From positions 13,096-77,095 of the forward strand of contig CANQQR010000001.1 in the NCBI GenBank assembly GCA_947626035.1: 64,000 bases of DNA, read 5' to 3'. The position numbers were made by a program, and so were the translations under genes. Of this stretch, positions 47,942-50,935 are shown in pieces. The notes below the pieces were generated by a model. The model did not search any database. It saw nothing but the letters and a program-made list of their open reading frames with translations, and had not been told where the DNA came from. Numbering within the stretch: position 1 is the stretch's first letter; each line of letters opens with the position of its first letter. The DNA comes from an uncultured Bacilli bacterium. GTDB taxonomy: Bacteria > Bacillota_I > Bacilli_A > RF39 > UBA660.

Positions 47942-49225
47942 TTGAGTAATAATAATACTAATACTAATTTATATAATGATGATTCTATACAAAGCCTTGA
48001 TCCTCGTAGTTTCACAAGACTTAGAGCTGGTGTATATTGTGGATCTACAGAATATAGTACACAATTACTTATTGAAATAGTATCTAATGCTATTGATGAG
48101 TGGTCTATTGGTAATGGAAGTGTTATTAATGTTGATTATAAAGATGATGGAAGCTGTAGAGTAGAAGACTTTGGTCAGGGATTTCCCATTAATGTGATGA
48201 GAGATGATGGAGAAACCGTTCTACAAGCTTCTTTTGATGTATTGAATACTTCTGGTAAGTTTACAGATGATGGCGTTTATGAAGGGACAGCACTTGGTCT
48301 TAATGGTATAGGCGGAAAGCTTACTAATTTCTTATCACTTTGGTGTGATGTGTATACATATCGAGACGGTAAAAGTGAGCATATTTGCTTTAGAGATGGT
48401 ATCTTCCAAGCAAGAGAAGTAGGAGAGCAAGGTAAATTTCATACGGGTACTATTGTTGAGTGGAAACCAGATCCTCAGTTCTTTGACAATAGACAAATTG
48501 AGGTAGGTAGAATTAAGAAGTTATTCTACGAATGGACTTGTTTGTGTCCCGGGCTAGTAATTAATCTAACTCATAACGGATCGGATCAGGTTACATTCTC
48601 ATCTAAGCATGGCTTAAATGATCTTGTAGATGATATTGTGAAAGATAATGAGATTATTAAGAATAGGTTAGATATTAGTCATAAAGATGGAAAAAATAAA
48701 TTAAATTTTGTGTTGACTTATTCAAATAGTTACTCTCTTAATATAGTTCCATACGTGAATACTGGCGAAACAAGCGACGGCCCGCATATTAGGCAGGTTA
48801 AGACTATTATCACTAGAGAGTTTAATAAGTTTTATAGAGAGAAGAAGTGGCTGAAAGATAAAGACGCCAATCTTGAAGGTGGAGATATTCAAGAGGGTAT
48901 GGTTATTGTATTTAATATCACCGCTCCTGGAGTATCTTATGATGCACAAACAAAGTCAAGAGTAGTTAAACTTGATATGACTCCTTTCTCTAGTGTGATA
49001 GCCGACGGCGTCCAGACGTGGCTTAATAGTAATGAAAAAGATATCAAAGCTATATTTGATAAAGCTATTAATGCAAGGAAAGCGCGGGACGCGGCTAAGA
49101 AAGCTAGAGAGGCAGTCCGAGAGAATCAAAAGAAGAAGAAAGAAAAAGTTCTCAAGTTTGATAGTAAATTAGCAGATTGTTATAGCAAAGATAGAGCTAA
49201 ATGTGAGATATATATAACTGAGGGT
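47942..49225 (+). CDS. Type II topoisomerase ATPase/B-like subunit, exon 1 (GHKL ATPase plus transducer, ends ...CEIYITEG)
   Basis: RLRAGVYCGST (as in GyrB GLDAVRKRPGMYIGDT), IEIVSNAIDE (as in HLVWEIVDNAVDE); TTG start; the ORF is cut inside the Toprim EGDSAGG motif. Confidence 0.65.
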
Positions 49226-50293
49226 AAGTAACTATTGCCCTAATCCTTTTTACCATTTATCAGTGGGGTCACAGTAATGTGGCTAACGGGGAAGCCTGAC
49301 CGTTACACATGAATGTCAAAACATGTTTAGGCGAAGGTAATCCCGTGGCAAGATTTTATATCTTTGGACAAACTTCGTAAATTCATATTGAGCCTCCTTC
49401 ATATTTCTTTGAAAGGAGATAGTGTATATGATAGGAATTTATAAGTATACAAACAATATAAATCATAAAGTTTATATTGGACAAAGTATTAATTTAGAAC
49501 AAAGAAAAGCGGTCATAAAAGTGCAGCTTTTAATCCAAATGCTAGCGACTACAATTCTCAATTTCATCAAGCAGTAAGAAAATATAGCTGGGAAAATTTT
49601 TCATATGAAGTTATTGCAGAAATTTCTAATGAAGAATATTCACAAAAAATGCTAGATGATTTGGAAAAATATTTTATCAACTATTATGATTCATATAAAA
49701 ACGGCTATAATGCTACTAAAGGTGGAAACGAGGTGGGCAATAGTGTCCACAAAGGAGAAACAAATGGTAGAGCATTGCTAAATAAAGAAGATGTGGAATA
49801 TATTAGAGAATGTTACAATGAACATATTCCATTTAAAATAATATATGAGCAATATAAAGATAAAATATCTAAAAGAGGATTGCAAAAAATTTGGTGGTTT
49901 GAAACTTGGAAGGATATTCATCCAGAATATCATACAGAAGAAAATAAATATTGGCACTCTCATCAAGCTAAAGCAAATGCACCAGAAGTTGCTGCAAATA
50001 ACAAAAGAAAATTCTCTGCTGAAGAAGTAAGACAAATGAGAGAAGAATATGATAATGGATTAACTCCAAAAGAAGTTTGGTTAAAATATGCTCCTGAATT
50101 AGCATGGGGTACTGTATATAATGCTATTACTAGAAAGACATATAAAGATATAAAATAAGCTGTATCGACTATGTGGGGTGAGACCCACAGTACAACTATT
50201 ATTGATACATAGTTGGAAACAGAGGACGTGTTGATGGCCCGACAAGCCGGAGCGAAGAGTTAGTCAGTGCTTATGGAAACATAAGAGTGCACG
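49226..50293 (+). mobile_element. Group I intron (putative) carrying a GIY-YIG homing-endonuclease ORF, inserted in the topo B-like gene
   Basis: Exon 1 ends in U (49225) and the insert ends in G (50293); the exons rejoin in frame to give ...[34 protein letters not shown], matching the conserved GyrB Toprim motif. Confidence 0.6.
49428..50158 (+). pseudogene. GIY-YIG homing endonuclease, frameshifted (two ORFs 49428-49580 and 49649-50158 in adjacent frames)
   Basis: MIGIYKYTNNINHKVYIGQS... then a +1 shift in the A-run near 49500 continues ...SGHKSAAFNPNASDYNSQFHQAVRKYSWENFSYEVIAE..GYNATKGG, the expected GIY-YIG continuation. Confidence 0.55.
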
Positions 50294-50935
50294 GATAGTG
50301 CCGCAGGTAATTTAAAGACTGCGAGAGATAATGAATTTCAGGCAGTTATGCCTGTTCGAGGTAAGATACTTAACTGTCAGAAAGCAACAATAGCACAGAT
50401 TCAGAAAAATGCTGAAATTATGACTATGATTGACGCTTTTGGTTTGACGATTGACTTAAAAACAATGAAGGTTACATACGAGCCAGAAGATTTGCGGTAT
50501 GACAAAATTATAATCATGAGTGACGCGGATGTTGATGGCGCTCATATCAAGAATTTATTCTATACTTTTGTTTGGAACTTCTGTCCGCAACTTATCATTG
50601 ATGGTCATGTGTATGCAGGAGTCCCCCCGCTGTATAAGCTGACTATTGGTAAAGAATATAAATATATTAAAAATGATGAAGCTCTCGCTGAATGGAAGGC
50701 TGCGAACCCTGGCAAAAAGTTCTCAGTAAAAAGACTGAAGGGCCTAGGTGAAATGTCTGTGGAGGAGACCGAAGAAACATTGACCGATCCCCGCGAGAGA
50801 ATTATTAAGCAAATAACTGTCGATGACGTAAAAGGTACAGATATATTATTTGATCAGCTAATGGGGACAGGCGTAACAGCAAGAAAAGAATATATTAAAG
50901 AACATTCTAGGGAGGCTACTTATAATGCAGAATGA
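50294..50935 (+). CDS. Type II topoisomerase B-like subunit, exon 2 (Toprim domain)
   Basis: DSAAG...MPVRGKILN...[21 protein letters not shown]...[11 protein letters not shown] parallels the GyrB Toprim. Confidence 0.65.
   Translation, partial: [213 protein letters not shown]

Follow-up and report, generated by a model that had tools for sequence, protein, structure and literature searches.

A probable group I intron with a frameshifted homing endonuclease gene at the Toprim motif of a phage topoisomerase gene

A topoisomerase B-subunit gene divided at its Toprim motif

We examined a 64,000-nucleotide (nt) stretch of DNA assigned to an uncultured Bacilli bacterium (contig CANQQR010000001.1, positions 13,096 to 77,095 of the forward strand; hereafter the window), in which a GyrB/ParE-like gene for the B subunit of a type IIA topoisomerase is split into two pieces by an insert. 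This insert is very probably a self-splicing phage-type group I intron (subgroup IA2), which lies within the Toprim EGDSA codons of a phage gene and which carries a frameshifted GIY-YIG homing endonuclease gene (HEG). The two pieces of the interrupted gene are as follows, with the evidence for each given in brackets.

47942..49225, + strand: exon 1 of a GyrB/ParE-like type IIA topoisomerase B subunit, with the ATPase and transducer domains, ending ...CEIYITEG (sequence, Pfam)
50294..50935, + strand: exon 2, opening DSAAGN..., with the remainder of Toprim and the GyrB C-terminal domain (sequence, Pfam)

Exon 1 begins with a TTG start codon at 47942 and its last codons are GAG GGT, with T at 49225, while exon 2 opens with GAT AGT GCC at 50294; between them lies an insert of 1068 nt (49226-50293) whose last base is G. 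An earlier reading made from the sequence alone (the sequence-only reading) had placed the junction at the same positions, with U as the last nucleotide of exon 1 and G before exon 2, and had proposed that joining the exons restores the conserved GyrB motif. Both points can be read directly in the sequence, as the joined exons (47942-49225 and 50294-50935) form a 1926-nt open frame of 641 amino acids (aa) in which the Toprim EGDSA motif is regained in frame across 49225/50294. Pfam assigns exon 1 to DNA_gyraseB (PF00204, 3.8e-30) and exon 2 to both Toprim (PF01751, 2.2e-12) and DNA_gyraseB_C (PF00986, 1.1e-16). In the joined 641-aa product, PF00204, PF01751, and PF00986 all exceed the Pfam cut-offs, PF02518 gives a weak match (21.3 bits), and the GHKL ATPase, transducer, Toprim, and C-terminal domains of a type IIA topoisomerase B subunit are all found in one polypeptide. 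If left unspliced, the exon 1 frame ends two codons inside the insert (TAA 49229-49231). An intein was rejected on this basis, the insert not being continuous with the exteins, and a group II intron was likewise rejected as the insert type. A junction shifted one base upstream (GG/...C/G) also reads EGDS, but it breaks the U and ωG rules of group I introns.

We next considered the relatives of the spliced protein, using it to scan IMG/VR and taking the 80 closest loci (62-78% aa identity). All 80 align as one unbroken stretch and none has an insertion at the junction, which reads EGDSA in 76 of them and EGNSA in the other four. The intron-free locus L001 even has junction nucleotides identical to those of the joined exons (GAGGGT/GATAGT, in the sequence ...ATATCACAGAGGGTGATAGTGCTAGT...). 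The insert therefore occurs only sporadically, and with precise boundaries, in a gene that is otherwise uninterrupted, and the covariance model described below finds no family intron inside the topoisomerase gene among these 80 closest loci. It should be noted that EGNSAAG stands in place of EGDSA at the intron-targeted motif in L035, L071, L078, and L079.

Existing gene calls on ENA contigs divide the topoisomerase into pieces of 429 aa and 195 aa, plus a 169-aa orphan; recognition of the intron would put a single 641-aa enzyme in place of these fragments. The gene is embedded in a replication module, along with genes for an ATP-dependent ligase, an RNase H (47191-47889), and a GyrA/ParC-like subunit (50925-53258). 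The GyrA-like gene is intact and begins in overlap with the exon 2 stop; an exact-sequence look-up of its protein gave no record.

Ribozyme core and intron family

The structure drawn for the insert comprises the following elements.

49226..50293, + strand: probable group I intron, IA2-type, 1068 nt, with ωG at 50293 (sequence, family comparison, covariance model)
49221..49241, + strand: P1, exon AGGGU (49221-49225) with guide GCCCU (49237-49241), U49225•G49237 at the 5' splice site (sequence, minimum-free-energy fold)
49244..49249, + strand: P3 5' strand UCCUUU, partner AGAGGA at 50221-50226 (per-sequence duplexes)
49250..49283, + strand: hairpins A (49250-49268) and B (49269-49282, GUAA loop), between the P3 5' strand and J3/4 (covariation, minimum-free-energy fold)
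49286..49349, + strand: P4 (ACGGG 49286-49290 / CCCGU 49342-49346), P5, P5a, and the P6 5' strand GGC (49347-49349) (weak Rfam match, alignment)
49353..50156, + strand: P6a, a perfect 13-bp helix of AUUUUAUAUCUUU (49353-49365) and AAAGAUAUAAAAU (50144-50156), closing the loop that holds the open reading frame (ORF) (sequence)
50159..50293, + strand: ribozyme 3' half (covariance model, covariation), made up of the next eight elements
50159-50161, + strand: P6 3' strand GCU
50167-50171 / 50261-50265, + strand: P7, GACUA / UAGUC
50172-50189, + strand: P7.1 (96.3% paired, compensatory changes)
50193-50215, + strand: P7.2 (97.8% paired, compensatory changes)
50221-50226, + strand: P3 3' strand
50236-50248, + strand: P8
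50270-50285, + strand: P9, CUUAUG-GAAA-CAUAAG
50293, + strand: ωG, the last intron base

The 5-bp P1 is regained by the minimum-free-energy fold, and a 6-bp P10 pairs guide ACUAUU (49231-49236) with GAUAGU (50294-50299) at the start of exon 2. P6 (GGC 49347-49349 / GCU 50159-50161) has P6a immediately inside it, and the 3' strand of P6a is built from the final codons of the ORF (AAA GAU AUA AAA U-AA). The G+C content is 29% in the ORF, 39% in the structured 5' part, and 47% in the structured 3' part.

For a family search, IMG/VR was scanned with a 16-mer spanning P5'/P4'/P6, which returned 29 loci, a number near our rough chance estimate; by BLAST and landmark searches, ~20 of the 29 are genuine homologues. 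The landmarks common to these homologues are GCUGUAUCGACUA (P6'-J6/7-P7) and AUAGUCAG (P7'). Members lacking an ORF have a P6a hairpin of 20-44 nt, while others have a 770-1000-nt insert with a GIY-YIG ORF in exactly that loop. To measure covariation, the hand-drawn structure of the window intron was mapped on a MAFFT alignment of 15 ORF-trimmed members, in which 82.4% of the cells are paired, versus 37-50% when the partners are slid by 1-3 columns. Both sides have changed in 45 pairs, and the observed score was reached by none of 500 shuffles. P4, P6, and P7 show no sequence variation, P4 and P6 being paired in every one of the 15 aligned sequences; in P7.1, P7.2, and P9, 96-98% of the cells are paired and compensatory changes are numerous. 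P6a exhibits both-side changes in 11 of its 13 pairs. Hairpin A has 90.7% of its cells paired and double-sided changes in four of five pairs, while hairpin B, which has an optional closing pair (G49268-C49283), is self-complementary in every family member and is also present in the minimum-free-energy fold. P3 is out of register in the 15-sequence alignment; when duplexes were predicted for each sequence singly, all 16 members had P3 at the equivalent position, in ~8 different sequence pairs.

We then built a covariance model (R1) on the 3' halves of 16 relatives, leaving out the window. The full length of this model matched window positions 50159-50292 (92.2 bits, E 2.2e-18), its sole match in 64 kb. 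In addition, the ORF-less family member L103:14-303 scores 50.1 against the Rfam Intron_gpI threshold of 50. The group I identity claimed by the sequence-only reading is thus supported by the P1 and P10 pairings, the family covariation, an independent covariance model, and a relative at the Rfam threshold; of the P1-P9 elements that it had suggested looking for, P1 is present in the minimum-free-energy fold and a P3-P9 core is supported by covariation. P7.1 and P7.2 both follow the P7 5' strand and precede the P3 3' strand, as is characteristic of IA2, and this pair, along with a 3'-half layout closely resembling those of the Twort and T4 td introns, places the intron in IA2.

Several results weigh against this interpretation. 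Rfam Intron_gpI (RF00028, gathering threshold 50 bits), which the sequence-only reading had also proposed as a check, gave no match on the whole insert; with the 5' half alone it gave a weak 11.5-bit match over P4-P5-P6, and with the 3' half nothing. The textbook IA2 order of P1-(P2)-P3-J3/4-P4 is not seen, as there is no P2 and two covarying hairpins follow the P3 5' strand. The folds have modest z-scores against shuffled sequences (-1.8 and -1.9), and group I splicing of the transcript is itself inferred from sequence features. The Rfam miss can be attributed to the ~790 nt with the ORF in the P6a-closed loop, plus the atypical 5' region. All 16 family members lack P2 and have hairpins A and B (49250-49283 in the window, likewise in L081-L107 and L110), and this P2-less, two-hairpin 5' architecture probably explains the poor Rfam scores of the family. 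A thin literature search found no account of two hairpins between P3 and J3/4. Comparisons with phage records found nothing, either by megablast of the region or by distant blastn of the 3' half. Overall, at least 20 related introns are mostly missed by the standard Rfam model. Two other assignments within the 5' region were tried and rejected. A canonical P3 directly 5' of J3/4 (the hairpin B 3' strand) pairs inconsistently with the P3' region across members when inspected by eye, whereas the upstream CCUUU-type strand covaries with P3' in all family members, and the GGGGU after hairpin A, considered as a P1 mimic, is conserved even where the guide sequence differs.

The same evidence bears upon two other explanations of the insert. 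It might be a non-splicing mobile endonuclease cassette, with the topoisomerase made as two polypeptides in the manner of T4 gp39/gp60 or the split nrdA of Aeromonas phage Aeh1. Split phage topoisomerase genes do exist in T4, and splicing in the window is predicted from sequence. However, a complete conserved ribozyme core flanks the ORF, P1 and P10 match both exon ends exactly, and the break falls inside the Toprim catalytic motif. The fragment with DSAAG also has no in-frame start: after the in-frame TAA at 50282-50284, the first start codon in the exon 2 frame is the ATG at 50348, which is 18 codons beyond the junction. A T4 39/60-type split gene was rejected since the downstream piece lacks its own start at the break, and we consider the cassette explanation extremely improbable. 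A second explanation is that the ribozyme is decaying as well, such that splicing is poor or dependent upon a protein cofactor and the topoisomerase gene is becoming a pseudogene. The HEG is already damaged, and P8 of the window intron and of its closest relative, L085, is unlike that of the rest of the family, with non-standard pairs in the covariance-model alignment and only 60.9% of P8 cells paired. Yet L085 has the same P8 variant and an intact HEG, the window intron has every family-invariant position (the window having been part of the set from which the invariant columns were derived), the two exons are undamaged with open frames, and the GyrA-like partner is intact. There is accordingly very little probability to be given to ribozyme decay.

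If the insert is a group I intron as we propose, its splicing would follow the established two-step, guanosine-initiated group I pathway. In the folded pre-mRNA, the guide 5'-ACUAUUGCCCU-3' (49231-49241) would first pair with the end of exon 1 to form P1, with U49225•G49237 at the splice site, and a free guanosine bound in P7 would cut after U49225. P10 would form next, between the guide and the first bases of exon 2, whereupon exon 1 would attack after ωG50293. The product would be an mRNA for a 641-aa subunit, the partner of the GyrA-like protein encoded next, while the early stop after the 5' splice site would keep ribosomes off the ribozyme.

The frameshifted endonuclease gene

Within the loop closed by P6a are the following features.

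49428..50158, + strand: GIY-YIG homing endonuclease gene, frameshifted (Pfam, PHROG, alignment)
49505..49508, + strand: A run (AAAA), one nt short relative to homologues (MAFFT alignment with L085 and L090)

The HEG has an ATG at 49428 and an AAGGAG ribosome-binding site at 49413-49418, with a spacing of 9 nt. From this ATG, frame 0 (position mod 3) reads MIGIYKYTNNINHKVYIGQSINLEQRK... and ends at a stop at 49575-49577, while frame 2 (-1) is free of stops from 49493 until that at 50156-50158 and reads ...SGHKSAAFNPNASDYN...KDIK before that stop. A MAFFT alignment revealed that the window lacks exactly one base in AGA-AAAGC relative to the L085 and L090 copies. When one A is added, a 243-aa protein results, which reads ...NLEQRKSGHKSAAF... 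The sequence-only reading had described a GIY-YIG endonuclease with a +1 shift in an A run near 49500. Its endonuclease gene and its frameshift are both real, although PF01541 matches over the whole domain only after frame repair, and the shift is -1 (frame 0 to frame 2), with one A missing at 49505-49508. In the native frame, only the N-terminal 26 aa match PF01541, whereas the repaired protein scores 26.2 bits (cut-off 22.6) over profile positions 2-78 of 78. The repaired protein also matches PHROG 7168 end to end (residues 1-243, 9e-27) and the endonuclease of Enterococcus phage VRE9_3 over residues 1-242 (30% identity, 1e-26); its C-terminal half has no Pfam match. The frameshift interrupts the catalytic domain at a point that separates its conserved Arg from its conserved His, and the annotated fragments should therefore be inactive.

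As the shift lies in a homopolymer, it could be a sequencing or assembly artefact, with the HEG actually intact. An exact-protein look-up identified four contigs assembled independently from four ENA samples; their identity to the window in this region is 99.8-100%, and all read AGAAAAGCGG, as does the window. Samples containing this phage include those behind ERZ27249467, ERZ27249462, ERZ27249252, and ERZ27060228. The same reading in four independent assemblies makes a random assembly error unlikely, and a 4-base run is short for homopolymer errors. The supporting contigs have only ~2-3x coverage, which speaks for an artefact, but in view of the agreement among samples we regard one as highly unlikely. 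None of these five copies, the window included, has a single uninterrupted HEG frame, the -1 shift being present in all of them, and we favor the interpretation that the HEG was recently inactivated by a real 1-nt deletion in the A run, its inactivity being a likely consequence of the broken domain. Two points count against this part of our interpretation: the supporting assemblies, besides their low coverage, are near-identical to the window and possibly from one study, and the 221 codons past the frameshift are fully open, which is also compatible with a functional frameshift.

The latter possibility would leave the intron as described but have the endonuclease still made, through a low-efficiency -1 slip of tRNA-Lys on A_AAA_G (49505-49509) that keeps a toxic nuclease at a very low level. 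Such a long open -1 frame in 29% G+C sequence would suit slippage, as would a required shift of -1 on an A run, where Lys-tRNA can re-pair one base back, the retention of all catalytic-domain residues after repair, and the fixation of the frameshift in all five copies. However, the five copies are essentially one strain, so their fixation says little. The site, A_AGA_AAA_G, is not an X_XXY_YYZ slippery heptamer: re-pairing is possible for the Lys codon only, not for the Arg codon in the P site. No strong or convincing downstream stimulatory structure was seen on reading the sequence, a stretch that was not folded, and the L085 and L090 homologues hold the extra base and need no shift. Decay is also common among HEGs as a class, which counts against slippage, and we consider this explanation unlikely. 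Among the three causes that the sequence-only reading had offered for the frameshift, a degenerating HEG is therefore the best reading, while sequencing error conflicts with four identical assemblies and a programmed shift has no canonical heptamer.

Two minor observations concern the same region. The locus L112 (ena:ERZ27249462 NODE_8141) is otherwise identical to the window but has one 8-nt gap relative to it, which may be a variant or an error of assembly; gene calling divides its exon 1 into genes of 249 aa and 173 aa. In the window, CUCCUU (49394-49399) can pair with the AAGGAG of the HEG (49413-49418); this pairing recurs in L090 and is absent in L085, and the resulting hairpin is not significant versus shuffles (z = -0.99). 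A hairpin that hides the ribosome-binding site would resemble the translational control of T4 I-TevI, although as an account of HEG control it is a weak idea.

Insertion sites, known introns, and other features

The closest relative of the window intron lies at the same codon boundary of a more distant topoisomerase gene (...CEIAIVEG/DSAGGN...) in L085, with 82% identity in the 5' part. Its P1 is AGGGU/GCCCU as in the window, its P10 (GACU/AGUC) tracks its own exon 2, and its HEG is intact (251 aa). L090 has the same intron after ...CEIYITEG, with 78% identity in the 5' part. A second family intron is found in L085 at ...KG/(L)GEM, and introns at the ATPase G-box (after ...NGIG or FGIG) are found in L090, L095, L096, L102, L107, and L115. 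Topoisomerase genes therefore hold family introns at three conserved motifs overall: after NGIG, at EG/DSA, and at KG/LGEM. Two family introns occur within a few kb on each of L085, L090, L093, L096, L097, and L098/L099, and in L085 and L090 both introns are inside one topoisomerase gene. Such a pattern, with insertion at conserved catalytic motifs but not in close relatives, is typical of homing. Presumably, the HEG placed the intron at this conserved site by homing into intron-less alleles; with the HEG broken in the lineage of the window, the intron would now be passed on vertically. The intact HEG of L085, the frameshifted HEG of the window, and the intron-free alleles may be viewed as snapshots of a cycle of HEG gain and decay. 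We also entertained a more elaborate proposal, in which the family is a structurally distinct IA2 offshoot (P2-less, with the two conserved hairpins, and largely overlooked by the Rfam model) specialized on phage topoisomerase catalytic motifs (the three sites above) and the window HEG is expressed at trace level via a -1 slip on A_AAA_G, throttling a toxic nuclease; as a whole, this seems quite doubtful.

The HEGs of some of these relatives contain in-frame TAG codons. The HEG of the first L090 intron (ORF ~4890-5810; IMGVR_UViG_3300031555_005868) has seven in-frame stops, all TAG, and ends with TAA, while the second L090 HEG (from 7063) has two in-frame TAGs, one of them aligned with a Gln of the window, and the L107 intron ORF also has two. 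These codons suggest that TAG has a sense meaning in these phages, rather than that the HEGs have decayed. As far as they were read, the topoisomerase exons of those phages have no in-frame TAG.

Among known systems, the T4 td and nrdB introns belong to group IA2, and their ORFs for the endonucleases I-TevI and I-TevII are located in a loop of P6a. These introns resemble the window intron in being phage group I introns in DNA-metabolism genes, in having P7.1/P7.2 between P7 and P3', a GIY-YIG ORF in the P6a loop, and a stop codon soon after the 5' splice site, and in a very similar P4-P5-P4' (UAACGGGGAA...AAUCCCGUG). In contrast, the window intron interrupts a type IIA topoisomerase B-subunit gene at Toprim EG/DSA, has no P2, has two hairpins after the P3 5' strand and before J3/4, and carries a frameshifted HEG whose C-terminal half lacks a Pfam match. 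The orf142 introns of Staphylococcus phage Twort are also IA2, and a crystal structure exists for the ribozyme. Their 3' half is nearly the same in layout and motifs (CGACUAU-P7.1-AGUAGGG-P7.2-CGAAAUGG(P3')-P8-AGAUAUAGUC-P9, with a GAAA loop) and several introns occur per gene, as in the relatives of the window intron, whereas the Twort order is the canonical P1-P2-P3-J3/4-P4 and the crystallized ribozyme lacks an ORF. An intron of Enterococcus phage VRE9_3 (PP680569.1, L110, ~135715-136800) belongs to the same family, with 80% identity over P1-P3 and hairpins A/B, the same landmarks, and the closest HEG in cultured phages. Unlike the window intron, it has an intact HEG and interrupts another gene, with exon 1 ending ...GRRHSGLIDEV. 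This intron is unannotated, and the split gene, annotated as hypothetical proteins, is probably the large terminase judging from a predicted Walker B motif.

T4 genes 39/60 offer a further comparison. This topoisomerase gene is reported to be split by a mobile insertion, with a 50-nt translational bypass (bioRxiv 10.1101/2022.08.31.505936). Both cases involve a phage type II topoisomerase gene broken by a homing-endonuclease-associated mobile element, but T4 copes with the break in translation and at the protein level, producing two polypeptides with ribosome hopping, whereas the evidence from the window suggests RNA splicing to one polypeptide. In the gut 'Jug' jumbo phages, group I introns fragment essential genes and 37 of 76 predicted introns have metatranscriptome-supported splicing; their interrupted genes, however, are terL, nrdD, and DNA polymerase, with topoisomerase IV only a conserved core gene, and their introns average ~206 nt (PMC12880540). 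IA2 is reported to be the commonest viral subtype (PMC11835236). Our literature searches turned up no group I intron described from a phage gene for topoisomerase or gyrase. The mechanism is ordinary; what is new is the insertion site and the poorly detected intron family. The window intron leaves the current understanding of group I introns unchanged, while adding the Toprim motif of a type IIA topoisomerase to the conserved sites targeted by phage group I introns.

Elsewhere in the window, the ORF at 45224-46696 encodes a CHAP domain and a choline-binding repeat and is probably a lysin. The 71.5-kb contig L115, which was placed in the bin of an uncultured Ruminococcus metagenome-assembled genome, is syntenic with the window at 40-48 kb. 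Together, the lysin-like ORF and this syntenic contig hint at a Gram-positive gut or rumen host. The window also contains a cluster of 17 tRNA genes interspersed with ORFs (20294-30701, + strand). Lastly, the 138-kb phage contig L092 contains a full-length ROOL RNA (RF03087, 332.8 bits) at 11836-12429 on the - strand, flanked by tRNA genes.

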